A DNA stretch of 64,000 nucleotides from a virus. Of this stretch, positions 4,710-24,214 are shown in pieces (the stretch's first letter is position 1; every line of letters starts with the position of its first letter). A model generated the notes under the pieces. The model had not been told where the DNA came from and searched no databases. It saw only the letters and a list, made by a program, of their open reading frames with translations. Where the stretch lies: the IMG/VR virus record IMGVR_UViG_3300010885_017276, positions 1 to 64,000 of that record; one strand, 5' to 3'. Position numbers and translations under genes: made by a program.

Positions 4710-5384
4710 TTAGTTGTATACTCTGATTTCGATTGGTGTGTTGTTTAACTGATTATTCGCATCTGTTTGACTAGGGCCTTGTGTTAAAATAAAAAAATAA
4801 CTACCCGAAAGCCTTAAAAATCCATAAGAAACACCTGCAGCGTCATCTCCAACAGAACCTAAAAAACCAACAGTTTTACCAACTGGAAAAAAAGATTCTG
4901 GCTCTGAAGAAACTTGATAATAACCCACAACATTATAAGCAAACCAAATATTCCCAATAGTATTTTCTAACACTGTTACTACTGGAGCTCCTGTGTTGTA
5001 AGATAAAAGAACTGATGGATCACTCCCCCAATTAGGAGATGTCCCTGTAGCTACAAAATAAGTTCCAATACCATTATTTGGTGCGCCTACATTCATAAAA
5101 TTAGCACTATGCGAATTTTCTATTCTATAGGTAACGCCTATTGTAAGTTCTCCTGAACTAATTGTTTGCACATCATCCCCACCACTCTGTGTAAGAAGAG
5201 CTGTGTACACTTTGTATGGTGGTAAATCTGAAGCTTTTGTAAATGGATCTATTCCTGTGTTTGTAAAATCTGCTAAGTCATAGTCTGCAGCGTTAATAGG
5301 ATTGTCCTCTAATTCTTTTACTCGTTCTGGTAATCTAAACCAACTAGCTGTAGTTGGTAACGGAAATTTTAAATAATTTTTCAT
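4710..5384 (-). CDS. WFRLPERV-leader fibre/decoration-like protein A
   Basis: Starts MKNYLKFPLPTTASWFRLPERVKELED; ends PIEIRVYN like 20322..21134. Confidence 0.7.
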   Translation of the reverse strand: MKNYLKFPLPTTASWFRLPERVKELEDNPINAADYDLADFTNTGIDPFTKASDLPPYKVYTALLTQSGGDDVQTISSGELTIGVTYRIENSHSANFMNVGAPNNGIGTYFVATGTSPNWGSDPSVLLSYNTGAPVVTVLENTIGNIWFAYNVVGYYQVSSEPESFFPVGKTVGFLGSVGDDAAGVSYGFLRLSGSYFFILTQGPSQTDANNQLNNTPIEIRVYN

Positions 5385-5386
5385 AT

Positions 5387-5812
5387 TTAGCAAATATCTA
5401 TTCCTGTGAATTGTACTCCGTCATAAACTAATTCTGTGCATGTTGTATATGCTAATATGCTTATACTATTTTCTAAATCCCCACATGCTACTGGATTTAC
5501 ATTACCTCCTGTTGATATAATAATAGTGCCTGAATCTGATTTGGCCATAATGTATACTCTATTACCTTTTAAAATTGAAGACCCCGGTAACAAATTTAAA
5601 TTAAAATTATCTGTTAATGGTCCATCAAATGAAACTACTGTATCTATAGAAGATATTGTTATATTTATATCTTGATTAAATGAAGGTACTGGTATTGTTA
5701 TAATTTCTCTACTATATGAAGATACTAACATATCTTCTAGTGCTTTTACTCTTTCAGGTAGCCTAAACCACGTTGCTGTAGTTGGTAATGGAAACTTCAA
5801 ATAATTTTTCAT
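5387..5812 (-). CDS. WFRLPERV-leader fibre/decoration-like protein B
   Basis: Starts MKNYLKFPLPTTATWFRLPERVKALED, then a short beta-rich domain. Confidence 0.7.
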   Translation of the reverse strand: MKNYLKFPLPTTATWFRLPERVKALEDMLVSSYSREIITIPVPSFNQDINITISSIDTVVSFDGPLTDNFNLNLLPGSSILKGNRVYIMAKSDSGTIIISTGGNVNPVACGDLENSISILAYTTCTELVYDGVQFTGIDIC

Positions 5813-5813
5813 A

Positions 5814-6443
5814 TTATTTTTTTATTTCAAATATTTTTACTTTGGCTCCTATGTAGTAGTTGCTTCTTGTGTCTGCTCCTATTGTAAGGATTGTGCCCTT
5901 TTTGTTTTGTATTCCTACGTCCGCCTTTACTCCTAGGTTGCTTAATGTTTGGTTGTTGAATAATTCTAACCCCCCATACAAAGCAAGGACTGTTTGTGGA
6001 ACTGGTATGTCTGCTTTTACTTCGGTTTCTTTTATAGTGTACTTAGGTTTTACCTCTATAATTTCTCCTCGGTACTTTGTGTAAATTTCTAATTTTAAAT
6101 CTTTATTATCGTACACGTAGGTGCCATCTTTTTCTTGTATGGCATCTAAGTATAGTTTTAATCTTTTAATGCTGTCAGTAGCTTTTAAATAGTCTTCAGC
6201 GAGTTGTTTGTTTATAGGATTCTCTGTGTAAATTGTTTTACCGTCTTTATAGACAATAGAGTCCTTTTTCTTTTCCCCCGGAATAATATTCGTAGGCTTA
6301 TCAAACTGTCCCTCTTTTGCTGGAACTTTTATTGTCACTGGAATAGTGGTCTTAGGTTCAGCACATTGTTTTACTAATGTAAACAAGTAGATGATCGCAA
6401 AGATCCCTACTACATATAATACATTTGTTAAAGGCTTAGGCAT
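5814..6443 (-). CDS. Putative spanin-like lysis accessory protein
   Basis: N-terminal TM followed by Cys; C-terminal amphipathic beta strands; follows holin and endolysin. Confidence 0.45.
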   Translation of the reverse strand: MPKPLTNVLYVVGIFAIIYLFTLVKQCAEPKTTIPVTIKVPAKEGQFDKPTNIIPGEKKKDSIVYKDGKTIYTENPINKQLAEDYLKATDSIKRLKLYLDAIQEKDGTYVYDNKDLKLEIYTKYRGEIIEVKPKYTIKETEVKADIPVPQTVLALYGGLELFNNQTLSNLGVKADVGIQNKKGTILTIGADTRSNYYIGAKVKIFEIKK

Positions 6444-6984
6444 TTAATAATTTTTTATATTTTGCTAATAATTCTTTTCTATGGTCGATACCATTTGTAC
6501 CACCATTAATTTTTTCAGTTACTGTCAAAACATCGTCTTTGTCAGCTGGAGCATTTAGTTTTTTCTTGTCCCAAAACCATAATGCAGCAACCATAGCGTT
6601 TGCTTCTTCTAGTAATAGATCCGGATTGTTTACAAAATCTATACCGGTATCTTTTGTTAATGTTGAGTAGTTAGTTTTACCTGTAAGTTGTATGAAACCT
6701 CTTCCACGATATTTCCAACCATCTCCTGGAGAAGTGTTCCCCATTCTATTTGCATAAACTATATTAGCTATTGATTGAGGTTTTCTCTCACAAGCTAGTG
6801 CTGTCTCTTTTGTAAAGTATTTTTTAAATGTTTTTAGAAGGCCCTCAGCTGAATAGTTCAGGTTTTCTGATATTGCCTTTAGTCCACTCTCGTGCTCAAT
6901 CTGAGCCATAAAGTGTGCCAGTCTTAGTGGTGTGTTTACAGAGTACTTACTTAATAAACTTTTGTATTTTTCGTATAAGGCCAT
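6436..6984 (-). CDS. Endolysin, glycoside hydrolase family 19
   Basis: RLAHFMAQIEHES, YANRMGN, GDGWKYRGRGFIQLTGKTNY, INGGTNG motifs. Confidence 0.92.
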   Translation of the reverse strand: MALYEKYKSLLSKYSVNTPLRLAHFMAQIEHESGLKAISENLNYSAEGLLKTFKKYFTKETALACERKPQSIANIVYANRMGNTSPGDGWKYRGRGFIQLTGKTNYSTLTKDTGIDFVNNPDLLLEEANAMVAALWFWDKKKLNAPADKDDVLTVTEKINGGTNGIDHRKELLAKYKKLLNA

Positions 6985-6989
6985 ACCTG

Positions 6990-7418
6990 CTACTTTAGTA
7001 CATCTACATCGTCTTTTATCTCTTTGGATCTTTTCAAGAAAGCTTTCAGTAGTTTGAATATATCTACATTAAAAGACTCCTCGAAGTTCTCTTTTATACT
7101 AACAGACTCTATAAATATTAATATTATTGTTACTACTTTGGTAAAAAAGAATGGTATTGAAAACCACATTTTAAAAAACTCGCCTAACAGAAAATTATCA
7201 ATAGTGTATATTAACAATACAGCTGATTGATATAGTACAAATTTTGAAACTATATTGCTTAACTTCCTAGAAGTTATTTTTTGTTTTAATTTTACAGCCT
7301 TAGATATACCAAATACGGTATCTAATGCTATAGCAGTCGCTACTGAGATTAATAGGCCTTGTATAGGTGCGAAAAATAATAGAAGGGTTGTAAGAAAATA
7401 AGCCAGATGAGTCTTCAT
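6990..7418 (-). CDS. Holin (phage holin 4-like)
   Basis: TM segments, DTVFG..KA...ITSRKL and IESVSIKENF motifs; directly upstream of endolysin. Confidence 0.8.
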   Translation of the reverse strand: MKTHLAYFLTTLLLFFAPIQGLLISVATAIALDTVFGISKAVKLKQKITSRKLSNIVSKFVLYQSAVLLIYTIDNFLLGEFFKMWFSIPFFFTKVVTIILIFIESVSIKENFEESFNVDIFKLLKAFLKRSKEIKDDVDVLK

Positions 7419-7444
7419 TTATTCTTCTTTTAAAAAGTTATATA

Positions 7445-7474
7445 AAAAAAGGAGGAGTGTTTTGCTCCTCCTTT
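7445..7474 (-). terminator. Intrinsic terminator (possibly bidirectional)
   Basis: AAAAAAGGAGGAG-tgttttg-CTCCTCCTTTT. Confidence 0.8.
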
Positions 7475-7487
7475 TAGTTTTTTATTA

Positions 7488-9467
7488 CTATAGTATTCCG
7501 TATGCGAATACTTGGTCTAAATTTGCAGCGTCTGCTAGATCGTTGATCAAGTTTTCAACAGCTACGTAGTTACAAGCGTCAACTAAGATATGGTAGTCAA
7601 AGTTTTCAACAACCTCTCCTGAGAATGATTGTGCGAATCTTGTAGTTCTTACTCGGATTACATAGTCAACATATTGAGTCAATGGTTTCAAGTGAGATTC
7701 TTGACCTAATACTAACTTACCATAGTTGTTACCTGCCAATCGTTGACGATTTTCAAAGTATACTCTAGTACGCTCTTCCATGTCGTAGAATTGACCTCCC
7801 ATTGCTTCTGGCTCAGTAGCGATTGAAAGTAATTTTACGTTGAATCTACCGTTAGTACCCATTGAGAATGATTCAGTTACCATTCCAGGTGCTTGGTTAG
7901 CGATAGATAATCTTGTAGAACTGTATACGAATGGTAGACTATCTCTGTATTCTTCTGAACCAGCCAAGATGTTTACTTTACTTTTTATAAAGATACCCAT
8001 CAAAGCTTCTTCATCATATACTGGAGCTTCTTCAACCCAGTGTACAAATCCAACTGGTACAGGTGGTTCTGTTACGAATAGGTCTCTCAACAATGGAGAA
8101 CACTCTTCACATACTACTTCAGAGAACACTACAGTTTTGTAAACTGTTTGACATGCTACTCCTGTTACTGGAGTACCTTCTTCTTGTTGCTCAATTCCAT
8201 CATTTCCATCATATAATGTACCTGATCCTACTAAAGAGCTTACTGCTTCTATAGTTCCAACAAATAGTAATTCAGACCCTGGAGAAGTTACAACTAATCC
8301 AGTAGTGGCTAAGATAGCAGCAGCGTGGTTAGTTACAAAATCATCAGCTGTTTGTGACAAACTTGTGTTGTAAGCTGTAGTGTAAGATGTAGATCCTAAA
8401 GTTACTATGATACTTCCTGTTGATCCAGCTAGGTATATAGAATCTTGATAATCTGCACCTGTTGCATCAATAAAGATGTTCAAATCTTGATTAGCATTTT
8501 CTACCTCTCCAAGACGACTACCATTACAGTCATCTCCTAATTGTAAAGTGAATACTTTAGGTTTTGCAACACAAGTTTCGCCTGCTGACCAAGTAATTGT
8601 TCTTGTAATTGAGCTACAATCTGGTGAACCGCAGTCTCCATCTTGTACTGTTGTAGTTTGTACAAAGTTAGAAAGAGTTGTACCTAACGGTGCTAAGATA
8701 ACATAGGTTGAAACACCTGCGTTACCTGCTCCAGGAATATAAGATTCTCTCTTAACTAAATGGTCTGGATAAGCAGCTTGTACTAATCCTAATGCTGTGT
8801 GGTTTCCATTATCTTGTACTTTTAAAGTAAAGAATTGGTGAGCTTGACCTAACACAGAAGTTGTGTTTGTGCTGTTTACTGGAGTAATAGTAAGATACTC
8901 AGTGATAGGCACTCCACCTACTAATGTAATATCTTTCAATCTCAATACTGCTTTTTCAACAATTTCGTGCATTGTAAAAGTTCCAGTGTTTGGAGCTTCT
9001 AAGTGCAATTTAACTGTTACTGTTGCTCCAGGATATCCTAACATCCCGATAGCTTCTCCTGATAAGGTAATGTCAATTACTTCATTATCTCCGTTAGTTA
9101 GAACAATTGCAGTATCTGCATTGATTCCATCATAACCGATGATAAATTCGTCAACTGTAATACCCACTTGAGGAGCGTTTACTTTAATGTCAACGATCTC
9201 AGACAATTTGAAAGGCATAGAAGAGTATGCTTTGTTTGATTGAGAACGTGTTGGAGTTAAAGGTGCGATACCTAATTTTAACTCAAATAATCTGTTTTTT
9301 GGAGTTGAAGAAAAAGTGTTTACTACAGGCATACCTAATGCTGTTGGTGAACCTCCTTTATCAACAATACCAAACTGACCTTTAGCTAATCGAGTAGAGT
9401 AGCCATTTGTCATAACTTGACCATCGCTTACTACGAAGGTAATTGTTTGTGGTGCGTGACTTGCCAT
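7488..9467 (-). CDS. Abundant structural protein (auxiliary capsid/decoration-like)
   Basis: 659 aa; codon bias like the MCP; strong terminator behind it; position downstream of MCP in crAss-like order. Confidence 0.55.
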   Translation of the reverse strand: MASHAPQTITFVVSDGQVMTNGYSTRLAKGQFGIVDKGGSPTALGMPVVNTFSSTPKNRLFELKLGIAPLTPTRSQSNKAYSSMPFKLSEIVDIKVNAPQVGITVDEFIIGYDGINADTAIVLTNGDNEVIDITLSGEAIGMLGYPGATVTVKLHLEAPNTGTFTMHEIVEKAVLRLKDITLVGGVPITEYLTITPVNSTNTTSVLGQAHQFFTLKVQDNGNHTALGLVQAAYPDHLVKRESYIPGAGNAGVSTYVILAPLGTTLSNFVQTTTVQDGDCGSPDCSSITRTITWSAGETCVAKPKVFTLQLGDDCNGSRLGEVENANQDLNIFIDATGADYQDSIYLAGSTGSIIVTLGSTSYTTAYNTSLSQTADDFVTNHAAAILATTGLVVTSPGSELLFVGTIEAVSSLVGSGTLYDGNDGIEQQEEGTPVTGVACQTVYKTVVFSEVVCEECSPLLRDLFVTEPPVPVGFVHWVEEAPVYDEEALMGIFIKSKVNILAGSEEYRDSLPFVYSSTRLSIANQAPGMVTESFSMGTNGRFNVKLLSIATEPEAMGGQFYDMEERTRVYFENRQRLAGNNYGKLVLGQESHLKPLTQYVDYVIRVRTTRFAQSFSGEVVENFDYHILVDACNYVAVENLINDLADAANLDQVFAYGIL

Positions 9468-9507
9468 TTTAATTTAATTTAGTTGTTATTTTTGTTATTA
9501 ATTTTTA

Positions 9508-9600
9508 TTAACATTTACCGCCCTTTTTCATCATGGGCATTTTTGAACTTGCTGGTTTTTTCATAGCAGGTTTAACTGTTTTTTTTACTGTTTTTTTCAT
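9508..9600 (-). CDS. 30-aa Lys/Met-rich micro-protein
   Basis: Manually translated MKKTVKKTVKPAMKKPASSKMPMMKKGGKC*; fills the gap, A-rich leader. Confidence 0.6.
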   Translation of the reverse strand: MKKTVKKTVKPAMKKPASSKMPMMKKGGKC

Positions 9601-9612
9601 TTTATTTTTTAT

Positions 9613-10278: not shown

Positions 10279-10290
10279 TTATTTTTTAGG

Positions 10291-10316
10291 AAAAAAAGGG
10301 GGCAGGGTAGCCCCCA
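10291..10316 (-). terminator. Intrinsic terminator
   Basis: A-tract followed by GGGGGC-agggta-GCCCCC stem. Confidence 0.65.
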
Positions 10317-10322
10317 TATTTA

Positions 10323-11300: not shown

Positions 11301-11374
11301 TTTTTTTATTTTTGGTTAATCTGTTTCTGTGGGTTGGTAATAATTTTGCGAATCTTGTTGGTTAATTCACTATG

Positions 11375-11406
11375 CAAAATTACAAAATGTTTTATTATAA
11401 AACAAA
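11375..11406 (-). promoter_or_regulatory. Bacteroidetes sigma-70-type promoter
   Basis: Minus strand TTTG-N20-TAATTTTG. Confidence 0.65.
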
Positions 11407-11415
11407 TAAGTTAAA

Positions 11416-11450
11416 TTTCCTACCCCACCGATTAAGATGGGGTAAAGAAA
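11416..11450 (-). terminator. Terminator after MCP
   Basis: TACCCCA-ccgattaaga-TGGGGTA stem with flanking T/A tracts. Confidence 0.55.
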
Positions 11451-11462
11451 TTTTAACAATTA

Positions 11463-13157
11463 TTAGTTATAACCTTTTCTTGCAGCTTCGTCTAATTCAA
11501 TCATAACGAAACGAGTTAAGTCTCTAACGTGGATGTCAGCAATATTGAACGCCCAGAACTCTTGTCCGATTTGTTTCATTGAAGACATAATGTCGCCAGC
11601 TTTTCTGTAGTCGTAACGTCCATTAGTAGTTCCCCAGTAGCACATTTCGCCTTGTGGTTTAACTAAGTAGATGTTAGCTCCAGAGTTACCGCCTTCTACT
11701 AAAGTAGAACCTTTTGGTAAATCTTTGTTGTTTGAATACATTTGATCCTCAACATCCCAAATAACCATTGAGTAAGCAGTTGGTGACAAGTTCTCTGGGT
11801 GGAATCCACCTGCTAAACGGTCAACACCTTCCATCATGTTCAATGATGTATCTTCTTCGATTTCAATGTTTCCAATACCAGGAATGAAAACTTTAGTGAA
11901 ACGAATTGGCACATACTCTAAGTTAAAAGTATCATTACCACGAACTGGGTTAGGGATAGTTCTTTCAACTCCTAAGAAAGTATTCAATGCAGAGTTTTGT
12001 GCATTTACTTCGTCAGAGAAGATAGACAAAATGTTTTGGTAAGCGTATTTACCACATTTGAATTTCAAACGTCTTTCAACGTCTTGTTTGAATGGGTTAA
12101 CACGGAATACGTATTCAGCAGCTTCTTTCAAGTGGTCACGAGTAATTCCTCCAGGACGACCATACTTAACAAGCTTACCTCTACGCAATTGGTGCCATAA
12201 ACCTTCGTTTAATCTAGCAACACCGTTTGAATCACGAACTGTAGCAGCACGTTGGAACATAAGTTTTTGAGCAGTCAAACGCTCTAATTCACGCATTGTC
12301 AAGAACTCCATGGTTGCACCAATACGAGCAGTTTTCATGTCTGGAACTTTCTTACCATTTTTGGTAGTCATGTTAGCCAATACTGCGTATTCGTTACCTC
12401 CAAATTCTGATTGCAATTTGTCTAAGTAAGATTTAGATTGAGCATCAGCACCAGAGAATGACTTAGAGTCAGCCATACCAGTGATGTAAGCTTCAACCCC
12501 AGAAGCAGATCCTAAACGGAACTCGCAACGCATTGTACCTACTGTATCAGGCAAATCAAAGTGAGAGAAGTTAGTACCTCTTTCTCCTAAGATAGCGTGA
12601 CCAACTTTAAAGTATTGGATACCTTTAGCCAAGTTAGAAGCCAAGAACCAAGTGTTTTTGTCGTTGTCAGCCAATTTAACTGTGTGTTCCCATCCTTCTC
12701 CTACAGCTGATACAGGCTCCTCACCAGAAACGATAAGTTGTTGACCGTAATATTTGTCATTAGAAAGAACGTCACCAGTTGTGTAAGCTCTGTTCAAAAC
12801 AATTTTGAAAGTTCCACCATCAACACCAGGATACGCTTGATAAGACATATCACGAGTTGTGTAGCAACCTTTGTACTCTTCTACAGGGATATCATAAGTG
12901 AATCCTCCGTCCCATCCGTTTACTTCAAGGATAGCTTTGTTTTGTAATAATTCACGTAAGATACCGTAGCTTCTTACCGCTTGTTTACCCCACAAATTCA
13001 TCAAACCTAAGTGATGTTTGTTTGGGTCTTCTTTGTACCATGAGTAAAGAGAAGGCAAATCCTGTGCACCGTTAATAGAAGAAACTGTTTTCTTATCGGT
13101 GAACATGATAACCTGGTCTCCGTTTACTACGAAAGGAATGTTTTGTTGTGTTACCAT
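11463..13157 (-). CDS. Major capsid protein (crAss-like)
   Basis: 564 aa; strong high-expression codon bias; position portal-scaffold-MCP; RLNEGLWHQLRRG and C-terminal DIHVRDLTRFVMIEL segments. Confidence 0.8.
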   Translation of the reverse strand: MVTQQNIPFVVNGDQVIMFTDKKTVSSINGAQDLPSLYSWYKEDPNKHHLGLMNLWGKQAVRSYGILRELLQNKAILEVNGWDGGFTYDIPVEEYKGCYTTRDMSYQAYPGVDGGTFKIVLNRAYTTGDVLSNDKYYGQQLIVSGEEPVSAVGEGWEHTVKLADNDKNTWFLASNLAKGIQYFKVGHAILGERGTNFSHFDLPDTVGTMRCEFRLGSASGVEAYITGMADSKSFSGADAQSKSYLDKLQSEFGGNEYAVLANMTTKNGKKVPDMKTARIGATMEFLTMRELERLTAQKLMFQRAATVRDSNGVARLNEGLWHQLRRGKLVKYGRPGGITRDHLKEAAEYVFRVNPFKQDVERRLKFKCGKYAYQNILSIFSDEVNAQNSALNTFLGVERTIPNPVRGNDTFNLEYVPIRFTKVFIPGIGNIEIEEDTSLNMMEGVDRLAGGFHPENLSPTAYSMVIWDVEDQMYSNNKDLPKGSTLVEGGNSGANIYLVKPQGEMCYWGTTNGRYDYRKAGDIMSSMKQIGQEFWAFNIADIHVRDLTRFVMIELDEAARKGYN

Positions 13158-13183
13158 TTTTAATTTAATTTAATTTATTGTTG

Positions 13184-14296: not shown

Positions 14297-14304
14297 TTTC
14301 GGTG

Positions 14305-14335
14305 CAAAATTAAGGGTTTTATTTGTAACTGCAAA
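14305..14335 (-). promoter_or_regulatory. Bacteroidetes sigma-70-type promoter for scaffold/MCP
   Basis: Minus strand TTTG-N19-TAATTTTG. Confidence 0.65.
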
Positions 14336-17183: not shown

Positions 17184-17190
17184 ATTTTAT

Positions 17191-18297
17191 TTATTGGGCA
17201 ATATATGTGCCGTTTATGTATGCTTTACTAATTGTAGTTAATGCAACAGGAGTTCCTTGTATCCACAATCCTTCTCTGATTGGTGAATTAGCTCCTCCTG
17301 ATTGTTTCAAATAATGTAAGTCTAAGACAGTTGTAATACCTGCAGTGTCTGCATTAAGTATTGTATGTCCAGTACCTGTGTCTGGATCAACATTAGGATC
17401 TGCCCATATCCATCCGCTAAAATGATTATATCCAAAACCAGGAGCAAAAGGTAATGCCACTTTATATTGTCCTGTACCAAAATTAGTAACTGTTGTAAAA
17501 TTAATTTCTATTACAAAACTAACTAACAATCCTGCTTTAACATAGTAAGAATTATAAGTGGGATAGGTTGTACCACTTCCAGTAAAAGTCATACCAGTTG
17601 CTTGAAATGTTGGAGAATACCTAGTCCACGTTTCTAATCCTGAAGTACCACTTATACCCGGAATGCCTTGTGGTCCTACAAATGAATATGTGTTCCAATA
17701 AACACCTAATGAAGAAGGTGGAAGTATTGCATCATTATTTGATATACATATATAGTAGTTACCTAAATAATTTACAATGTCACCAACTAAGTAACCATTT
17801 GGGGATACTCTTGTTACGTCCCAAGCAAATCCTGTTAAGCCTTTGTCTCCTTTTACACCTTGAATACCCTGTGTGCCTTGTATACCTTGTTCACCTTGAA
17901 TGCCTTGTATTCCTTGGACACCTTGGGGCCCTTGTAAGTCACCCACATCTTCCCAAACATTAGTTGCTGTATTCCATATATAAAGAGATCCGTCAGAAAT
18001 AAGTAACCACGCTTCTCCTGGATTTCCTGGGCTTGCTCCTGCTCCTGCTAAGAATGCAGTAAGATCTGGATAAGAACCTAGTACTGTTAAAGCAGCTCCT
18101 GTCTCTCCTTGTACTCCTTGTGTTCCTTGAACACCTTGCGTTCCTTGTGAGCCTTGGATACCCTGTGGTCCTTGTGGTCCTGCAGGCCCTTGTGGTCCAA
18201 CTGTCGAATCTATACTATCTTCAAGAGCTTTTACTCTTTCTGGAAGACGGAACCACTCTTTACCTGTGGGTAGTGGGAATTTTAGATAGTTCCTCAT
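17191..18297 (-). CDS. WFRLPERV-leader collagen-like fibre protein C
   Basis: MRNYLKFPLPTGKEWFRLPERVKALED, G-X-Q collagen triplets, YLVGDIVNYLGNYY carbohydrate-binding-like module, beta-sandwich tip. Confidence 0.8.
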   Translation of the reverse strand: MRNYLKFPLPTGKEWFRLPERVKALEDSIDSTVGPQGPAGPQGPQGIQGSQGTQGVQGTQGVQGETGAALTVLGSYPDLTAFLAGAGASPGNPGEAWLLISDGSLYIWNTATNVWEDVGDLQGPQGVQGIQGIQGEQGIQGTQGIQGVKGDKGLTGFAWDVTRVSPNGYLVGDIVNYLGNYYICISNNDAILPPSSLGVYWNTYSFVGPQGIPGISGTSGLETWTRYSPTFQATGMTFTGSGTTYPTYNSYYVKAGLLVSFVIEINFTTVTNFGTGQYKVALPFAPGFGYNHFSGWIWADPNVDPDTGTGHTILNADTAGITTVLDLHYLKQSGGANSPIREGLWIQGTPVALTTISKAYINGTYIAQ

Positions 18298-18298
18298 T

Positions 18299-18457
18299 TT
18301 ATTTTGTCCCTTGGGGTAGGCCCTCCTTAATTTCTATAAATTTTTCTTTCATTTTTGTACTTATTCCTTCAAGACAATTTCTGCCCTTTCCTTTAGTCCC
18401 GATACATCTTGCAGGATCATTAAAATAATCAAGCATAGTTTTTTTTAATACTCCCAT
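18299..18457 (-). CDS. 52-aa hypothetical protein
   Basis: Manually translated MGVLKKTMLDYFNDPARCIGTKGKGRNCLEGISTKMKEKFIEIKEGLPQGTK*; fills the gap exactly. Confidence 0.55.
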   Translation of the reverse strand: MGVLKKTMLDYFNDPARCIGTKGKGRNCLEGISTKMKEKFIEIKEGLPQGTK

Positions 18458-18472
18458 TTTATATATTTTTTA

Positions 18473-20308
18473 TTAGTTAGAAAAAGTTAAATTATCTCCA
18501 GCTGGTGCAATAAATTCAATATCTAGGTATGCAACAGATTCCCATTCAGTTATTGAAGAGTTTGCGATAATAGATACAAAATAGTCACCGCTAGTAGCTA
18601 AAGTATTATCTAGTATGATAGCCCCAAATGTAGTCGTTGCAATACTGCCACTAACTGAATTTCTTATATAAGAATTAGCACCAAATTTAGAATACAACTC
18701 ATCATAAGTATTTACAGTGGCTTTCATTGTTGTTTGGTCACTTGTCATAGCTAATTTTTCTGAGCCAGATATAACTCCTATTAAGTATACAGAAGATGTG
18801 CTATTTATATTTGGAAAGTTTGCTATGCCTTTTAATTTATACTTATTATAAGTTGTAGCAATAGTAGTATTTATTCCAGTTATATCCATAGATATAGTTG
18901 CAGTTCCACATGTAAAATCTACGGTATCGCCAATTTCATAGTTAGTTCCAGGATCAGTTATTGTAAGATTATAATTACTTGGTCCTGTAATATTTATAGT
19001 TGCACTTGCTCCAGAGCCACTTCCACCAATACCAAAAACTTCAAAACAGTCTCCTACTACTAAAGTCCCCGATGTGTTTAAAATATATGTAGTTATACCA
19101 TTAGATGGTGGAACTACTATTGTATCTGATAGTTGAATAAAGTCGCTCTCTACATTTACATCTAAAGTGCCTTTAGTATATACCATGTCATAGTTAGCAG
19201 CTGATGATGATACAGATGCTGTATTCAATACTGTTCCATCTGCAAACTTTATTCCACATGATTGTGGAATTACGGTTCTGTAATAAGCAAATCCTCCAGT
19301 GTTAGGGCCACCACCTTGTGTCCAACTATCAAAATTAATTTTATAATATAAATCTGTAGTCATATCCCACATAACAAGGTCTGTACCTGGTATGTTATTA
19401 CCTACATTAGCATCTAGAGCATCTATAAAACTTGTATATCTACGTGATTCTAAATTGCTAAGATCATCCCATCCTGAATAACCAGGTCTTGAATCTATAA
19501 ATGAACTATTCCATTTAGTATTTATGGGAGATGATCCATTGTTAGAATAATCTTCAACTACAGCATTGAATAAACCCCCATTGCTATTTCTTTTTAGATG
19601 AACACCTAGTGAAATTATATCTATTACATTAGGTTCATTATCTGGTCTTTCAAAATATACTTCTGAAAATATTTCATATCTTTCGTAGGCAAAACCATAA
19701 TCGTTATTACCACCAACACCCCAATGAGTAAATTTGATTAACCAATATCTTTCAGGATCACTACCATTATCCCATTTCATAACTGAATATATTCCTACAT
19801 ACTGAGGTGGGACATAATCATCAACTCCATCAACAGCATTTCTCCAATCTGTATAAGTTCTATTCTGTACATCCCAAAGTGGAGCCCATGATGTGTTAGC
19901 AGCATCTACATATTGTGTATTCCAAAATGTATTCTCTGGAGAGTTATTACCACTACTATAACTTGATTCTAAAGCAATGTTGTAAATACCGCCACCACTA
20001 TTACCACGAGTGATTTCAAGTTCTCCTGGAATGATAACATCTTTATCAGTGACAGGATTAGAGCCTGATATTTTTGTAAAAGATACTTTTTGACCTACTG
20101 AGCCGGGTTTAAAGTCCATTATCAAACTATTAAGATCTGAATCTCTCAGGAACTTGTCTGTTGAAGAGTTTTTAAACTCTGATAGATCTCTATTTTTTAC
20201 TGTTTCTAAATCTTGTACAATGTCTTGCACCTCTTCAGGTAATCTCCACCAGGTAGCATTAGGTGATTTTGGATAATTTTTGTGTGTGTTGTTTATTACT
20301 TTTTTCAT
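18473..20308 (-). CDS. WWRLPEEV-leader fibre/decoration-like protein D
   Basis: MKKVINNTHKNYP...WWRLPEEVQD; two tandem ~140-aa domains each ending GFAYxR. Confidence 0.75.
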   Translation of the reverse strand: MKKVINNTHKNYPKSPNATWWRLPEEVQDIVQDLETVKNRDLSEFKNSSTDKFLRDSDLNSLIMDFKPGSVGQKVSFTKISGSNPVTDKDVIIPGELEITRGNSGGGIYNIALESSYSSGNNSPENTFWNTQYVDAANTSWAPLWDVQNRTYTDWRNAVDGVDDYVPPQYVGIYSVMKWDNGSDPERYWLIKFTHWGVGGNNDYGFAYERYEIFSEVYFERPDNEPNVIDIISLGVHLKRNSNGGLFNAVVEDYSNNGSSPINTKWNSSFIDSRPGYSGWDDLSNLESRRYTSFIDALDANVGNNIPGTDLVMWDMTTDLYYKINFDSWTQGGGPNTGGFAYYRTVIPQSCGIKFADGTVLNTASVSSSAANYDMVYTKGTLDVNVESDFIQLSDTIVVPPSNGITTYILNTSGTLVVGDCFEVFGIGGSGSGASATINITGPSNYNLTITDPGTNYEIGDTVDFTCGTATISMDITGINTTIATTYNKYKLKGIANFPNINSTSSVYLIGVISGSEKLAMTSDQTTMKATVNTYDELYSKFGANSYIRNSVSGSIATTTFGAIILDNTLATSGDYFVSIIANSSITEWESVAYLDIEFIAPAGDNLTFSN

Positions 20309-20321
20309 CTTATGTTTTTTA

Positions 20322-21134
20322 TTAGTTGTATACTCTTATTTCTAGTGGTATTATATTTGGTAACATTGTACCTTCTGTTCTTACTCCTGATATATTATAA
20401 GTTTCAAAGGCAATTTGAGAAGCACTATTTATATCTACATTGTTCAAAGATATATTTCCTGTATTTACTTTACTATTAGGTACACTAACAAATGTTTTAT
20501 TTGTTGTAAATAAATTTGATGAATTTATATAATAGAATCCTGCAAAATTTCTAGAAAAAGTTACTGTTCCCAATGTGTTATTAAGGATAGTTGCTGTAGG
20601 GGCACTTGTTCCTGTTTGTGTCAATATAGCTACATATTCTTTATACTTAGGGGTTGTTGTAAATATTAATTCCCAAACAGCAGCTCCTTCTGTATTATCA
20701 GTACACAAGTAAATATCTCCATTATCTAATATCCATCTACTTCCAGATACAAATCCTTTGGTAGAATCATCATTAACTCCTGGGGTAAGTGTAAAGGTGT
20801 GGTTTACTTCACGAATAGTAAATCCATTACTCTCCATAACATACTGTCTTCCTGCTTCCCATTTTAATTCGTAGTCTATAGAGCATATCTGAGATATACC
20901 ACCATTACCCCCAGTCTGACTATTAGTAGTCCCTTTTTGTAATCTTGAACCATTGTCAAAAAGTATCTTAGATGTATCAAGTAACTCAATATTATTTGTA
21001 GTTGTATTGCCTTGATCTGTAACTGATTGTAAATCTTGTGATCCTACTCCTGTTTCTTCTAATGCTTTGACTCTTTCAGGAAGCCTAAACCAAGTGGCTG
21101 TGCTTGGTAATGGGAATTTTAAATAGTTTTTCAT
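20322..21134 (-). CDS. WFRLPERV-leader fibre/decoration-like protein E
   Basis: MKNYLKFPLPSTATWFRLPERVKALEE, QDLQSVTDQGNTTTN fibre motif, C-terminal PLEIRVYN. Confidence 0.75.
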   Translation of the reverse strand: MKNYLKFPLPSTATWFRLPERVKALEETGVGSQDLQSVTDQGNTTTNNIELLDTSKILFDNGSRLQKGTTNSQTGGNGGISQICSIDYELKWEAGRQYVMESNGFTIREVNHTFTLTPGVNDDSTKGFVSGSRWILDNGDIYLCTDNTEGAAVWELIFTTTPKYKEYVAILTQTGTSAPTATILNNTLGTVTFSRNFAGFYYINSSNLFTTNKTFVSVPNSKVNTGNISLNNVDINSASQIAFETYNISGVRTEGTMLPNIIPLEIRVYN

Positions 21135-21140
21135 TTTTTA

Positions 21141-21890
21141 TTAAAGTCTTACAGCACCAATTGAATTGGTTGCTTGATTATGATATAGATATGTACTTCC
21201 TGCAGATGCTCCAAGTAAAACTGTTATTGCTAATGCTGCTGCTGCATGATTTGCATAAGATGGCATACTTGAGTTTGAGAATATTGTTTGTCCAGATAAA
21301 GTATTACTCGTACCAGCACTATTACCAAAAGCATTTACATTATTTCCTGTTGAACTTTGTCCTGCAAATCTTCCAATAAAGTTACAATTAGTTGCATTGT
21401 TTGAATTAGCCCCTGCAAATTCCCCTAAGAAGTTAGAATAAGGTGAGCTTGTTGCAAAAGATCCAGCATATCTACCAATGAAAACACTATAGTATGAATT
21501 AGTAGCATTTTCTCCAGATCTATGTCCAATAAATACTGATTTATATGCATTGGTCGCACCGTCTCCAGCATTTACACCTATGAAGTTTGCGTTATAAACA
21601 CCGGTTGCTCCGTTTCCGGCATAGTAACCAATCATATTATTTTTCTGATTATTGGTATTTTTTCCTGCATTAATACCTAAGTACACACCGTATGTGGTAT
21701 TAAAATTAGATGTAGCAGGATTAGTAGAATAAATAGATGTTCCTGTTGTAGCTATACTTGAAGAGAAATTTTCTACTTCTGTTACTCTATTAGAAACTTC
21801 TTCTATTGATTTCACAATATCTTGTACTCTTTCGGGTAATCTAAACCACTCTTTACCTGTGGGTAGTGGGAATTTTAAATAATTTTTCAT
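21141..21890 (-). CDS. WFRLPERV-leader beta-helix fibre protein F
   Basis: MKNYLKFPLPTGKEWFRLPERVQD; ~15-aa repeats (N/S)xFIGxxAG. Confidence 0.75.
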   Translation of the reverse strand: MKNYLKFPLPTGKEWFRLPERVQDIVKSIEEVSNRVTEVENFSSSIATTGTSIYSTNPATSNFNTTYGVYLGINAGKNTNNQKNNMIGYYAGNGATGVYNANFIGVNAGDGATNAYKSVFIGHRSGENATNSYYSVFIGRYAGSFATSSPYSNFLGEFAGANSNNATNCNFIGRFAGQSSTGNNVNAFGNSAGTSNTLSGQTIFSNSSMPSYANHAAAALAITVLLGASAGSTYLYHNQATNSIGAVRL

Positions 21891-21891
21891 G

Positions 21892-22710
21892 TTATAAATT
21901 TAAATCTTTTACTCTATTTTTTACTTTTTTTTCTATTTCCGGATTTCTTTTTACAGTTGAAATAAGATGGGTATATCCTATAGTTTTAGCTACGTCCTCT
22001 TCTATATAACCTTTACTGGCACTTTTTGGATGAGTATTTGTAATTAGTTCTACTTTATATCCGTAATGTTGGCATAAATGATACACAAAAAACTGTTCAA
22101 AAATTAAAGATGATACTTGTTTAGTGTAATCAACTGTTGATGTTTTTAAATACTCCACATAATTTAATGCTTCGTCCCACCACTCTTGTAAGATGTCTAA
22201 CTTATTAAAAGCTATAATTCCACAATTGTATGCTCTCATACTTTTAGAGTTAAACCATTTTGGTTTATTCTTGTAATTTTTACCAGCGTCTTCTAATAGA
22301 GTTTCATACCAAACTCCTAAGTTTTCATATTCTAATTCTTGAAAAGCTGCATCTGCTTCTAGAAGAATTTTTGCTGGTTTTTTAAACCATATAACATCTG
22401 TATCAATATGTATAAAAGGTTTGTCTTGTATCTTACAGGCATATATTTTTCCTAAAGCCCAGTGACTATTATTTACACCTTTCATAACTTCTTCTAGTCC
22501 AGTGTCTATCTTATCAAACTTTAGACCATACTTTTGTATAAGTTCTTTTCCTTTGTTATCTGTAACTAAATGAACCTCTTTAAAATACTGCTTTGAAAAA
22601 TGTAATGATAACTTAAAACAATCTATTAAGGCTTCTTCTGAATTAAATCCTACATATACACCTTCCATTGGGGATGACCATAGTGAATATACTGCTCTTT
22701 CTATTGCCAT
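21892..22710 (-). CDS. Glycosyltransferase-like protein (DUF6734-like, GT-A fold)
   Basis: YSLWS, LVTD..G, WALGKIYA, PFIHIDTD (DxD), YNCGI, LIFEQ motifs. Confidence 0.7.
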   Translation of the reverse strand: MAIERAVYSLWSSPMEGVYVGFNSEEALIDCFKLSLHFSKQYFKEVHLVTDNKGKELIQKYGLKFDKIDTGLEEVMKGVNNSHWALGKIYACKIQDKPFIHIDTDVIWFKKPAKILLEADAAFQELEYENLGVWYETLLEDAGKNYKNKPKWFNSKSMRAYNCGIIAFNKLDILQEWWDEALNYVEYLKTSTVDYTKQVSSLIFEQFFVYHLCQHYGYKVELITNTHPKSASKGYIEEDVAKTIGYTHLISTVKRNPEIEKKVKNRVKDLNL

Positions 22711-22711
22711 T

Positions 22712-22768
22712 CTATAAATTTGATAGTCCTATGCCTATTGAAAAATTATTATAATATTTTTTTGCCAT
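22712..22768 (-). CDS. 18-aa micro-ORF MAKKYYNNFSIGIGLSNL
   Basis: Fills the gap with 1-nt spacers on both sides; ends GIGLSNL like the upstream protein. Confidence 0.5.
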   Translation of the reverse strand: MAKKYYNNFSIGIGLSNL

Positions 22769-22769
22769 T

Positions 22770-24191
22770 TTATAAATTTGATAGTCCAATTCCTACTCCA
22801 CCATCGTAGTAATAGCTAGGAGTGGTTTCAATAGGATATTCTATTATTTCTAAATGTACATAGGCTTGACTAGTTTCTCCTTCATTAAAATTATATAAAT
22901 CTCTAAATACAAGTTGCCCTGAACTAGGTTTTATAAATGGAATAAAAGTAATAAATGAACTATCTTCTGTAGACTCTTTTACAAATAGTCCTTTTTCTAC
23001 ATATTCATCTATTAAAGTATCATACCCATAAGAATTTGTAATTTTAATATGTGTTTTATTCCAAATTGAATAACTGTATTTTGCAAATTTGTAATAACCA
23101 TCGATTATACTCCATGTACAATTAAGACCAAATGTATTTTCTAGTTCTATATTTTTAAATCTTGCAAAAATAGATGAATCATATAATAATGGATTTGTAA
23201 CTAAATTTCCATTTATTATATTTACATATATACTATAAGCACTTTGACTATTTGACCCTGCTGTTGGCCAAAGTATATAATCTGATCCATCAGCATGAGA
23301 TGGGGTTAAATTTATTATATTAGAAAGATCATTAAATTTTGTTTCTCTTAAATTTTGAGCTGTCCAAATTTGAGTTCCTATTTTTGTTGTAGTATAGGTT
23401 TCTCCATCATTTCCTGTATACTGGCTAATAACTCCTGTATCTGATGTTACTCCATCTACAAGAGATAGCTCTTCAGCTGTAGCTTGTCTTACTAGTCTTA
23501 TAGATAGCCCAGTACTTTTACTTGTATTTCCTATTCCAGCATTTTCTATTCCAGCTACTATTGAATAATATAATCCATTTAAACTAGGATTACTGTCAGT
23601 TGTCCAAAGATAGTTTACTTGCTTTAATCCACCAAAATTTCCTGGTTCTGAACGATATCCACTAGGCACAGCTGAAAAATTATAATTGTCTGTACCCACT
23701 ATTGCTAACCACCCATATAGATCATTATCAGTGCCTGTTATTTTAGATCTTAGTGTAATTCCAGGATTAGGATCATCAATATATGTTTCTAAAGTCTCAT
23801 AATCAGATGCGCTTGGCACTCTCCACAAGTTAGGTTCTTCAAGTAATGAACCACCACTTGGATTTTCTATTTTTTTAGAGTCTGTTGCAGCATACCAATT
23901 ATAGTAGAATCCATATCCTGGCCAGTTATATAATTTTGTTGCTATCTTAGCTCTATATACGTTATATTTAGGTAACTCAGAATTTTTTACAAATTTGTCT
24001 AATGAGGTATTTGTAAAGTCTGATAGATCACGGTTTTCTAGTGCTACCTTGTCTATAGTTAACTCTGAGACTGCGTCTTGTATAACTTCTACTGAATCTG
24101 CAACATCTTTTACTTCTTCAGGCAATCTCCACCAAGATATCTTAGAAGATAAAGGGTAATTTTTCTTAGTGTTGTTAATTATTTTTTTCAT
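22770..24191 (-). CDS. WWRLPEEV-leader protein G with Fibrobacter succinogenes major-paralogous-like domain
   Basis: WWRLPEEVKD leader; YGFYYNWYAA, WRVPS..D, NFSAVPSGYR, GLSIRLVR, KIGTQIWTAQNL motifs. Confidence 0.75.
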   Translation of the reverse strand: MKKIINNTKKNYPLSSKISWWRLPEEVKDVADSVEVIQDAVSELTIDKVALENRDLSDFTNTSLDKFVKNSELPKYNVYRAKIATKLYNWPGYGFYYNWYAATDSKKIENPSGGSLLEEPNLWRVPSASDYETLETYIDDPNPGITLRSKITGTDNDLYGWLAIVGTDNYNFSAVPSGYRSEPGNFGGLKQVNYLWTTDSNPSLNGLYYSIVAGIENAGIGNTSKSTGLSIRLVRQATAEELSLVDGVTSDTGVISQYTGNDGETYTTTKIGTQIWTAQNLRETKFNDLSNIINLTPSHADGSDYILWPTAGSNSQSAYSIYVNIINGNLVTNPLLYDSSIFARFKNIELENTFGLNCTWSIIDGYYKFAKYSYSIWNKTHIKITNSYGYDTLIDEYVEKGLFVKESTEDSSFITFIPFIKPSSGQLVFRDLYNFNEGETSQAYVHLEIIEYPIETTPSYYYDGGVGIGLSNL

Positions 24192-24214
24192 TTTTTGCTA
24201 TTACTTAAGATGTG

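Follow-up and report, generated by a model that had tools for sequence, protein, structure and literature searches.

A conserved N-terminal leader, probably a virion-docking peptide, heads seven diverse fibre-like proteins of an uncultured virus

The window analysed here comprises the first 64 kb of a complete 124,055-bp virus genome (Table 1). Judged from its sequence, the source is an uncultured crAss-like phage, kin to the Cellulophaga phages phi4:1 and phi17:2, with phi4:1 as its nearest cultured relative. According to PMC10172136, phi4:1 and phi17:2 are placed with the crassviruses, and the Fig. 1 legend of that paper includes Φ17:2 among the crassvirus relatives analysed. Gene order in the genome parallels gp34/35-gp36-gp38-gp39-gp40-gp43-gp44 of crAss001, and the virion gene set is of crassvirus type. 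The major capsid protein (MCP) is 47% identical to a structural protein of phi4:1; its identity to a database entry labelled major capsid protein is 38%.

Table 1 Features of the window considered in this study. Leader classes refer to the two variants of the shared N-terminus.
Coordinates	Strand	Feature	Basis or detail
2694..3770	-	Tail-fibre-like protein	phrog_18345, E 1.5e-5
3801..4145	-	114-aa Cys-rich protein	Position and size (crAss001 gp39 = 114 aa)
4145..4693	-	182-aa Cys-containing virion protein, phi4:1 gp056 homologue	phrog_31752
4710..5384	-	Class-1 leader protein, 224 aa	Leader = codons 1-27 (5304-5384)
5387..5812	-	Class-1 leader protein, 141 aa, small divergent beta payload	
7488..9467	-	Structural homologue of crassvirus auxiliary capsid protein (ΦcrAss001 gp36)	
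11463..13157	-	Major capsid protein (MCP)	phrog_35737, E 1.1e-165
14406..17183	-	Portal protein	phrog_6547, E 1e-114
17184..24259	.	Island between portal and terL genes	7,076 nt
17191..18297	-	Class-1 leader protein, 368 aa	PF01391, E 1.9e-11
18473..20308	-	Class-2 leader protein, 611 aa	MKKVINNTHKNYPKSPNATWWRLPEEV
20322..21134	-	Class-1 leader protein, 270 aa	
21141..21890	-	Class-1 leader protein, 249 aa	Weak tail-spike PHROG match, E 0.0012
21892..22710	-	Leaderless DUF6734 protein inside island	PF20508, E 6.1e-43
22770..24191	-	Class-2 leader protein, 473 aa	PF09603, E 2.9e-19; TIGR02145, E 7.7e-19
24260..26986	-	Terminase large subunit (terL)	phrog_6681, E 1.7e-94

Between the portal and terL genes lies an island of five leader ORFs and one leaderless DUF6734 gene, whose product shows weak likeness to nucleotide-sugar transferases (PF03407 E 0.033, below the cut-off). 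The first-pass annotation had described five fibre-like genes in a roughly 7-kb island separating two genes that are usually neighbours. Both statements hold: 7,076 nt lie between positions 17183 and 24260, and terL and portal are adjacent in all five relatives compared (phi4:1, crAss001, G002, G003 and G004), with gaps of 157 nt in G002, 67 nt in G003 and 116 nt in G004. The island is an insertion relative to every one of these relatives.

Exactly seven ORFs, all on the minus strand and with the coordinates and N-termini originally reported, open with the leader NY..P....W[FW]RLPE[RE]V. Translating the window in all six frames gives exactly seven copies of the leader core, W[FW]RLPE, each 14-22 residues past the start ATG of one leader ORF. 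Across 200 mononucleotide shuffles of this sequence the core was seen once in total, and a protein search covering the entire genome returned the same seven places and none further at E<=10. For the 224-aa protein the longest ORF runs from a TTG at 5393, and the ATG at 5384 yields the MKNYLKF start found in its paralogues. Ten columns are invariant in all seven proteins (M1, N3, Y4, P8, W15, R17, L18, P19, E20 and V22). When the five class-1 leaders are compared pairwise over codons 1-27 (10 comparisons), 95 codon differences are synonymous and 54 non-synonymous; the excess of synonymous changes therefore indicates a leader conserved at the protein level rather than a recent DNA copy. The shared leader is under purifying selection.

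The ~25-aa leader has a Pro- and aromatic-rich arm, NY(L)K(F)PLPxxxxW[FW]RLPE[RE]V, followed by a short helix, and the arm is probably extended. In the AF2 model of the 224-aa protein (mean pLDDT 77), residues 1-19 have no secondary structure, residues 20-27 form a helix and residues 53-224 a beta domain. The leader has no match among Pfam, PHROG or NCBIfam models, in agreement with the earlier remark that no named family covers it, and the strings WFRLPE and WWRLPE were not found in the literature searched.

Behind this N-terminus the proteins diverge. The 224-aa protein continues with a linker module, ADYDLADFTNTGIDPFTKASDLP, and a 'PYKVYTALLTQSG...IEIRVYN' tip, modelled as a beta-sandwich with an inserted subdomain. 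In BFVD the tip matches a structural protein of a Flavobacterium phage (E 1.6e-7) and a tail fiber of an Olleya phage (E 1.1e-6), and its fold matches to trimeric knobs are modest, all under the Z 8 caution line (phiAB6 tailspike C-terminus 6.8, PRD1 P5 5.8, TNF/C1q 4-5). Proteins of 97-1359 aa that begin in many other ways also end in this tip, which was found in 82 ORFs of the fetched IMG/VR loci and in 169 tblastn relatives among 261 pattern matches. In the 270-aa protein a middle domain precedes a 'YKEYVAILTQTG...LEIRVYN' tip, which has tblastn relatives in many IMG/VR loci. The 368-aa protein has two collagen G-X-Y blocks immediately behind the leader and ends in a C-terminal tip; its matches to tail-fibre PHROGs (down to 2.6e-23) are driven by the collagen repeats. 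The 611-aa protein contains a linker module, NRDLSEFKNSSTDKFLRDSDL, an internally duplicated domain (34% identity, E 3e-14) and a C-terminal domain, while the 473-aa protein contains a coiled-coil-like stretch, a linker module, NRDLSDFTNTSLDKFVKNSELP, and a Fib_succ_major domain. The collagen, tandem, Fib_succ_major and beta-sandwich payloads (the last from the AF2 model) are thus as first described. For the 249-aa protein, the longer coiled-coil-like stretch and the Gly/Asn/Ala-rich repeats behind it are present; the beta-helix proposed there is a tentative call drawn from the weak tail-spike PHROG match in Table 1. Local alignment scores between payloads are mostly 25-63; the higher values, 74-117, come solely from pairs that have a tip or linker module in common. 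The leader is thus a discrete module joined to unrelated or mosaic payloads, as the first-pass annotation had recognised.

Conceivably, the leader acts only as an oligomerisation or folding nucleus that registers the three chains of a collagen helix or coiled coil and does not touch the particle, with attachment, if any, made by another part of the protein or by another protein. Collagen helices require a nucleating domain, and collagen repeats follow the leader without a break in the 368-aa protein, as do coiled-coil-like stretches in the 249-, 611- and 473-aa proteins, with the modelled helix starting at residue 20 in the 224-aa protein. However, the most conserved part, NY..P....W[FW]RLPE, precedes this helix, is Pro-rich and lacks predicted secondary structure, which is atypical of a trimerisation core. 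Small tip-only members, going by the fold matches, probably trimerise through their TNF-like tips, and no other segment is common to all seven proteins as an anchor. We regard a purely nucleating role as unlikely.

Profile searches returned only ~25 cluster representatives of the leader among 1.84 billion proteins, and the leader is absent from phi4:1. A small fibre ORF lies directly upstream of a 182-aa gp056-like gene in the window and in loci L093, L010, L080 and L033, and one extra gene separates the two in L048. Locus L093 has a single 161-aa leader ORF in place of the window's two, between flanks that are 99-100% identical, and in a metagenomic relative (L092) this leader and the collagen are joined to a different tip. 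The longest contigs of P0006/P0007 and P0238/P0242 are 31,265 and 33,623, as for AUX proteins 91-92% identical to the window's, and we infer that the former lie on the same contigs as the latter. The clustering of the paralogues, five in one island and two adjacent, is a layout that duplication yields, and the shared N-terminus could accordingly be a functionless leftover of serial gene duplication or gene conversion. Against such a passive origin, leader pairs differ by 6-14 synonymous changes per 27 codons yet retain the peptide, the payloads attached to them are unrelated, and 25 of 34 profile matches keep the leader in other phages behind other payloads. Furthermore, the fibre ORFs of the more distant L080 and L048 carry variant leaders alignable with the window's and built on the same core, with Y4 nearly invariant and L18 and P19 invariant. 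Of all the explanations weighed, a passive leftover is the least probable.

The best-supported reading, and in our judgement the probable one, is that proposed from the outset: the leader is a short peptide at the N-terminus by which interchangeable fibres dock to the virion. All seven proteins would assemble into oligomeric fibres (a trimer in the collagen-bearing case at least), whose N-terminal arms would plug into a socket that is the same for all on the finished particle. The C-terminal payloads (collagen stalk and tip, TNF/C1q-like beta-sandwich tips, a Fib_succ_major lectin-like domain and repeat domains) would face away from the particle as modules for adhesion or receptor binding. Behind an anchor this short and self-contained, any payload could be placed by recombination, which would account for the mosaic make-up of the payloads and for the differing cassettes of close relatives. 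The docking itself, the oligomeric state and the docking site are what we infer. Seven different fibres on one socket would require many equivalent sites or mosaic virions, and an assignment of the two leader subtypes to two sites is speculation.

Alternatively, the leader could be a targeting or cleavage propeptide, like the T4 capsid-targeting sequence, that brings the proteins to the prohead or assembly site and is cut after the L-x-E of RLPE. The RLPE sequence fits the L/I-x-E consensus of the T4 prohead protease, and, as with the T4 internal proteins, several unrelated proteins carry the leader at their very N-terminus. Yet neither Peptidase_S77 (T4 gp21-type) nor Peptidase_S78 (HK97-type) was found in the complete genome at E<=1, and collagen, lectin-like and TNF-like payloads are binding modules of extracellular type, unlike internal or cargo proteins. 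A propeptide is therefore very improbable.

A docking peptide would follow a familiar phage fibre design of conserved anchor and variable tip, and the label "display system" given to it earlier overstates the case. Phages that carry several receptor-binding proteins on one kind of conserved N-terminal anchor follow this design, examples being P22-type tailspikes (head-binding domain), T7 gp17 (N-terminal domain) and multi-depolymerase Klebsiella phages, and the adenovirus fibre, whose tail sits on the penton base, is comparable; the conserved N-terminus attaches to the particle, the variable C-terminus binds the host and recombination occurs at the junction. In those bacteriophages the anchor is a folded domain, roughly 100-150 aa long and covered by a Pfam model, whereas a Pfam anchor domain was not found here and the presumed anchor, present in seven genes, is a ~25-aa peptide outside any named family. 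What is new is the leader sequence; that phages swap host-binding parts in this way is already known.

Short anchors are documented in ΦcrAss001, whose fibres dock through N-terminal residues 1-26, 1-38 or 1-58 (PMC10172136). The leader profile has no match in the PDB at E<=10, with no detectable similarity to these anchors, and it shows no sequence similarity to the common N-terminus of three phi4:1 proteins described below; the docking argument is therefore one of analogy, not homology. In ΦcrAss001, gp36 and the MCP form a head-fibre pocket (PMC10172136). The AF2 model of the gp36-like protein in the window (pLDDT 73; Foldseek match 7qof_a, E 5.7e-4) identifies it as a structural homologue of gp36, with VIA Z 16.2, rmsd 4.5 and 301 of 333 residues aligned, against Z 10.3 for the next unrelated match. 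The protein is about twice the size of gp36, owing to inserted domains, and also matches FliD (6iwy) and FliC (4nx9), a likeness reported for gp36 as well (PMC10172136). It shares 35.5% identity with gp061 of phi4:1, whose annotation as a structural protein is based on MS/MS.

A pocket at the hexon centre, formed by this protein and the MCP, is thus one of two candidate sockets. The small crAss001 proteins gp21 (97 aa) and gp29 (122 aa) are close in size to the small leader proteins and likewise combine a short N-terminal anchor with a small C-terminal beta domain. Placement in the genome is similar too: the crAss001 genes for gp21 and gp29 are found beside portal and within the lysis cassette, respectively, and of the leader genes in the window five adjoin portal and two come after the lysis cassette. 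Unlike crAss001, which has one gene per anchor type, the window has seven paralogues on one anchor; their payloads are larger and more varied, the anchors lack sequence similarity and the capsid location is putative. The first-pass annotation had named the gp36-like protein as the candidate partner, a reasonable guess given the structural match, although an equally good candidate exists at the tail. Within the docking reading, we hold the head pocket to be a tentative assignment, somewhat short of an even chance.

The tail candidate is a comparably tentative socket, either a tail-fibre hub formed by the 182-aa and 114-aa proteins or a branch of the main tail fibre; the neck or portal vertex takes what probability remains. 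Residues 1-26 of the trimeric ΦcrAss001 tail fibre gp22 dock in a disulfide-stabilised A2B hub of gp38 and gp39 (PMC10172136), an anchor similar in length to the leader. The Cys-containing pair in the window occupies the same position as gp38 and gp39, directly downstream of the leader genes, and by position, size and cysteines the 182-aa and 114-aa proteins are candidates for hub proteins A and B, respectively. The 182-aa protein shares 29% identity with gp056 of phi4:1, which MS/MS evidence has led to be annotated as a virion structural protein. Profile comparisons are not significant for this pair (E 0.046 with gp38, E 0.2 with gp39), and most leader proteins are far smaller than gp22 (832 aa). 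The true gp22 counterpart may instead be the tail-fibre-like gene at 2694-3770 (relatives of 652-1335 aa), which encodes a different conserved N-terminal domain (EVKHYKVKxLxxTLRPN...), common to much longer fibres of relatives and 64% identical to a 1335-aa ORF of locus L010.

In phi4:1, gp049, gp050 and gp051 (872, 611 and 955 aa) have a common ~28-aa N-terminus of their own, I..(x)I.DLPISKV.GL.DAL, which does not align significantly with the window leader (hhalign E 0.08, probability 0.7%). Like the leader proteins, these are several fibre or spike proteins with one N-terminus and different bodies, and GenBank notes state from MS/MS that they are virion proteins. Unlike the leader proteins, they are large spikes whose genes lie in the tail-fibre block rather than between terL and portal.

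A six-frame translation of the window contains exactly seven copies of the string W[FW]RLPE, each lying 14–22 residues past a start ATG, and a search of the whole genome returned the same seven sites and none extra; in 200 shuffles of the window the string was found once in total. Each copy belongs to the N-terminal leader (NY..P....W[FW]RLPE[RE]V) of one of seven fibre-like ORFs, which were all confirmed, together with their N-termini, as the first-pass annotation had described them. All seven proteins agree in ten alignment columns (M1, N3, Y4, P8, W15, R17, L18, P19, E20, and V22), and the leader occupies the extreme N-terminus in all seven, running from residue 1 to approximately 27 in class 1 and to approximately 36 in class 2. 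The five class-1 leaders differ from each other at 12–30 of 81 bases, and the codon differences over their ten pairs are 95 synonymous vs. 54 non-synonymous, which together indicate a peptide under selection rather than a fresh DNA copy. The excess of synonymous differences contradicts the idea that the leader is a functionless remnant of gene duplication, as does its presence in other phages, and we give this explanation hardly any credence. No Pfam, PHROG, or NCBIfam model matched residues 1–40 of any of the seven proteins, and the strings WFRLPE and WWRLPE were not found in the literature searched, in keeping with the earlier remark that no named family was known for the leader.

All seven leaders contain RLPE, which lies near the leader end and fits L/I-x-E, the cleavage consensus of the T4 prohead protease, as would be expected of a cleaved targeting propeptide of the T4 type. 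The complete genome gave 0 matches at E ≤ 1 to the two S77/S78 prohead protease families searched (PF03420 and PF04586), and such a propeptide is very improbable.

A leader profile of 32 positions, run against 1.84 billion cluster representatives at a cut-off of E ≤ 0.001, returned 34 matches. Reading of the sequences placed the leader at residue 1 in 25 of these, while eight are false (seven with TSPTSWYTTPENVQ repeats and one coiled-coil protein) and one, P0018, contains three internal leader-like motifs. Five of the 25 true carriers are near-copies of the window’s own proteins, and 13, all of them small, terminate in the tip domain of 4710–5384 and 20322–21134 (‘PYKVYTALLTQSG...IEIRVYN’), two of them with variant endings. 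In P0018, a metagenomic protein of 93 aa, the motifs stand in tandem (WFNLPTKIK, WFRLPEKLKALVD, and WFRLDAEVDLL), which suggests that a W-F-x-L-P-plus-helix unit can occur away from the N-terminal context.

Searches of GenBank phages gave no match by megablast of positions 4000–25000 and a single chance match by tblastn of the 32-aa leader (E 5). In IMG/VR, where entries close to this genome may have been hidden from the search, none of the 18 pattern matches obtained with the leader alignment was confirmed, and a degenerate DNA pattern for WFRLPERV gave three matches, all due to chance judging by their translation; among 4,561 ORFs of the fetched IMG/VR loci, an HMM scan found locus L010 as the sole leader carrier. 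Metagenome contigs gave 108 pattern matches with three confirmed; L092 and L093 are fragments of close relatives, and L094 was rejected as a chance match within a bacterial gene. From 185,579 prokaryote species genomes came 20 pattern matches and one confirmed, a match of 12 residues in an actinomycete MAG that is due to chance, so the leader is not seen in prophages of this reference species set. The lineage itself is not rare, since a search for homologues of the 7488–9467 protein gave at least 286 at E ≤ 1e-5, on contigs of up to 143 kb, and the leader is therefore particular to a clade.

The payloads behind the leader match their earlier description, namely collagen repeats, a Fib_succ_major domain, an internal tandem duplication (18473–20308), and, in an AF2 model, a beta-sandwich (4710–5384). 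The collagen G-X-Y repeats of 17191–18297 (PF01391) score 44 bits against a Pfam cut-off of 27.2, and because collagen repeats imply a trimer, they imply that this protein is trimeric. The Fib_succ_major/FISUMP domain of 22770–24191 scores 70.5 bits with PF09603 (cut-off 33.9) and 69 bits with TIGR02145 (cut-off 41.65). A second shuffled module, a linker of ~22 aa (D(L)xDFxNxxxDxFxxxS(D/E)L), follows the leader in the class-1 protein 4710–5384 and in both class-2 proteins, as well as in the relatives P0003, P0013, and L093.

The tip domain (C-terminal ~105 aa) is widespread, with 169 tblastn-confirmed relatives among 261 IMG/VR pattern matches; in the fetched loci, 82 ORFs of 97–1359 aa carry it at the C-terminus behind many different N-termini. 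The AF2 model of 4710–5384 (45-sequence alignment, pLDDT 77) lacks secondary structure in residues 1–19, followed by a helix at 20–27 and a beta-sandwich at 53–224. In BFVD it matches a structural protein of a Flavobacterium phage (1.6e-7) and a tail fiber protein of an Olleya phage (1.1e-6). Its matches to solved structures all lie below the tool’s caution line of Z 8 (WSSV VP37, 7.0; phiAB6 tailspike C-terminus, 6.8; PRD1 P5 knob, 5.8; TNF/C1q, 4–5), and Foldseek found nothing in the PDB at E ≤ 0.001 for the tip-domain model. As far as the model goes, these folds would be consistent with a trimeric fibre knob. Many tip carriers in the IMG/VR loci (L014, L015, L017, L020, L030, L035, L039, L041, L042, L049, and others) are 500–1359 aa long, and these long proteins open with a hydrophobic segment resembling a signal peptide (MKKILFLLLL...GQ), an uncommon feature among phage fibres.

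The IMG/VR record, whose bases 1–64000 make up the window, describes a genome of 124,055 bp with direct terminal repeats and a completeness rating of 100%, and the terminal repeat is an exact one of 123 bp. Packaging and virion genes form one minus-strand module (81–29390) that runs across the genome ends into 95–124 kb. At ~29400–29960, gene orientation switches and GC and AT skew change sign, separating this module from plus-strand genes that start at 29961. The nearest cultured relatives are the Cellulophaga phages phi4:1 and phi17:2 (genus Lightbulbvirus, 145 kb), whose core genes are syntenic and whose capsid protein is 47% identical; to go by the Fig. 1 legend of the paper on the solved particle of the crassvirus ΦcrAss001, Φ17:2 is among the crassvirus relatives analysed there (PMC10172136). 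The Cellulophaga relatives, and the occurrence of the tip domain in phages of Flavobacterium, Olleya, and Polaribacter, suggest that the host is probably one of the Flavobacteriaceae.

Location of leader genes, virion-module genes, and fibres with other shared N-termini
Feature	Location	Strand	Basis
Leader ORFs, class 1	4710–5384, 5387–5812, 17191–18297, 20322–21134, 21141–21890	−	shared leader
Leader ORFs, class 2	18473–20308, 22770–24191	−	shared leader
Island	17184–24259		
Leaderless island gene	21892–22710	−	DUF6734, E 6.1e-43
terL	24260–26986	−	PHROG profile, E 1.7e-94
Portal	14406–17183	−	PHROG profile, E 1e-114
Major capsid protein (MCP)	11463–13157	−	PHROG profile, E 1.1e-165
GH19-type endolysin	6436–6984	−	PHROG profiles
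Auxiliary capsid protein	7488–9467		AF2 fold match
182-aa gene	4145–4693		
114-aa gene	3801–4145		
2704-aa ORF	G000:C1:111233–119347 (outside window)		
2181-aa ORF	G000:C1:103524–110069 (outside window)		
VKHYKVK-type fibres	window 2694–3770, L010 9110–13117, L033 5469–9263, L048 5003–6961, L080 2184–4322	− (window)	shared N-terminus
Cys-rich N-termini	G000:C1:110149–111210 (outside window), L010 15725–16963, L048 10412–11380, L080 5696–7801, phi4:1 gp046/gp047		shared N-terminus

The gene order in the window is terL, island, portal, scaffold-like, MCP, 325 aa, 221 aa, gp36-like, lysis genes, two leader genes, 182 aa, 114 aa, and fibre genes, continued past the genome end by proteins of 222, 113, 288, and 2704 aa. 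In ΦcrAss001 it is terL, portal, gp21, gp22–26 (fibres), lysis genes including gp29, MCP, gp33, the ring proteins gp34/gp35, gp36, gp38, gp39, gp40, gp43, and gp44. The 2704-aa ORF, one of two giant ORFs in this genome (G000), is a homologue of phi4:1 gp042 (44% identity over 1148 aa) and stands in the position of the ΦcrAss001 muzzle protein.

That terL and portal are usually adjacent, as the first-pass annotation had assumed, holds in all five relatives compared, which are phi4:1, ΦcrAss001, and three same-lineage IMG/VR genomes of 130–143 kb with gaps of 157, 67, and 116 nt. The 7,076-nt island that parts them here, with five leader genes and one leaderless gene, is an insertion confined to this phage and its nearest relatives; L092, a metagenome fragment, has the same order, an 18473-like gene and then a collagen-leader gene. 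The leaderless DUF6734 protein shows sub-threshold likeness to nucleotide-sugar transferases and could modify fibres or host glycans.

The two leader genes outside the island occupy a conserved slot. A small fibre ORF lies directly upstream of the 182-aa gene in the window (two ORFs) and in the loci L093 (161 aa), L010 (139 aa), L080 (173 aa), and L033 (97 aa), and in L048 one of 190 aa is found there with one gene between. The slot of L093 holds one ORF between flanks 99–100% identical to the window; the core proteins of L010 are 54–94% identical to the window’s. Two paralogues in L080 and one protein in L048 carry a variant leader, DY[ST]K[FY]..ELI..I...R[YF][WF][ND]LP[KR]M, which leaves Y4 nearly invariant and L18 and P19 invariant when aligned with the window leader. 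The L080 variant is rare, with three proteins only in a word-based search. The intervening ORF of L048 (3489–4130) has a GIY-YIG-like start; in ΦcrAss001, too, a homing endonuclease (gp37) separates gp36 from gp38.

For the 7488–9467 protein, an AF2 model built from 30 sequences (pLDDT 73) matched chain a of PDB 7QOF, the ΦcrAss001 capsid, at Z 16.2 (rmsd 4.5, 301 of 333 residues aligned, model residues 4–655 covered), with the best unrelated protein at Z 10.3 over 84 residues. In the structure paper, the ΦcrAss001 auxiliary capsid protein is gp36 (residues 1–333), one domain of which is likened to FliD 6IWY and FliC 4NX9 (PMC10172136). Both are also among the fold matches of 7488–9467, and these likenesses, together with the 7QOF match, identify it as a gp36-type auxiliary capsid protein. 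The phi4:1/phi17:2-like lineage thereby gains a structural homologue of the crassvirus protein at about twice the size of gp36 owing to inserted domains. The inserts (model residues ~200–460) are similar to insertion domains found in sheath proteins of phages and in T7-type nozzle proteins (Z 8–10 over ~80 residues), and homologues of 7488–9467 fall into two size classes of ~560–570 aa and ~650–670 aa. Profile comparison of the family with gp36 was not significant (E 0.027) despite the strong fold match, so sequence is uninformative at such distance. PDB sequence searches with 7488–9467, MCP, the leader-protein profile, and the 7488–9467 and 182-aa profiles returned nothing meaningful.

By position and size, the 182-aa and 114-aa proteins, both Cys-containing, are candidate counterparts of gp38 (215 aa) and gp39 (114 aa), the ΦcrAss001 hub proteins; profile comparisons with these were not significant (E 0.046 and 0.2, respectively). 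A complex prediction with two 182-aa chains, one 114-aa chain, and three 55-aa leader segments scored 0.00 and 0.06 vs. a mark of 0.32 and, run without controls, speaks neither for nor against binding.

The leader is probably a short peptide at the N-terminus by which interchangeable fibres dock, a reading that draws on crassvirus structural precedent, a parallel in phi4:1, the fibre-type payloads, and cassette turnover between near-identical genomes. That it serves purely as an oligomerisation nucleus appears distinctly unlikely. The structure paper distinguishes three ways of docking in ΦcrAss001; in two of these, the dimeric head fibre gp29 is bound via residues 1–58 in a pocket, and residues 1–26 of the trimeric tail fibre gp22 sit in an A2B hub formed by gp38 and gp39 and stabilised by disulfides (PMC10172136). 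The docking segments of gp21, gp22, and gp29 (~26–58 residues) lie at the extreme N-terminus, as do the window leaders. Of the socket parts, the auxiliary protein has a window counterpart by fold, and hub subunits A and B have candidate counterparts by position, size, and cysteines. By eye, the leader bears no likeness to the ΦcrAss001 anchors, and a profile of 17 leader proteins matched 0 PDB chains at E ≤ 10, the ΦcrAss001 entries included. In phi4:1, gp049, gp050, and gp051 (virion proteins by MS/MS according to their annotation) share a ~28-aa N-terminus of their own with DLPISKV, whose similarity to the window leader is not significant. Folded anchor domains include the P22-type head-binding domain and the T7-type tail-fibre N-terminus; these have Pfam models, whereas the window leaders match none. 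Conserved-anchor/variable-tip design and docking via short N-terminal segments are already known. New are the anchor sequence family, its use in two subtypes by seven genes of one genome, the cassette island between terL and portal, and the recognition in this lineage of a gp36-type auxiliary capsid protein of increased size.

Under the docking reading, the socket could plausibly be in the tail, as the leader genes adjoin the hub-like pair, the tip domain is also borne by long proteins resembling tail fibres, and phi4:1 has its own leader on large spike proteins. A socket in the head is also plausible: the leader proteins are small, as are gp21 and gp29, seven competing fibres would find many equivalent sites on a capsid, and a separate long fibre (2694–3770) with its own N-terminal domain could fill the hub. 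A fuller proposal, which we consider doubtful, is that all seven proteins are head fibres and that each virion is coated with a combinatorial mixture of collagen, lectin-like, and TNF-like adhesins, with the leader subtypes sorted to planar and winged pockets and the island acting as an expandable site for capsid-adhesin cassettes. Head fibres of this kind would amount to a naturally occurring platform for multivalent display on the capsid. If ~25 aa of leader suffice by themselves as a plug, the leader would be a very small natural tag for attachment to crassvirus-type particles; ORFs starting with the tag would then mark virion-exposed binding proteins, a help in reading host range from metagenomes, and the tag would give a testable handle on adhesin carriage and exchange in a little-studied environmental branch of crAss-like phages.

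Two further shared N-termini were observed in the lineage. One, an anchor-like module of ~55 aa (..VKHYKVKxLxxTLRPNxVYYVK..PxPLIDL), heads fibres that otherwise differ. Its window representative is the tail-fibre-like protein encoded after the 114-aa gene (652–1335 aa in relatives), which may be the true counterpart of gp22. The other is a Cys-rich start of structural proteins (for example, MxCxCNN..C..C.CP...LSTDCV) that may be related to the disulfide-stabilised tail parts of ΦcrAss001.
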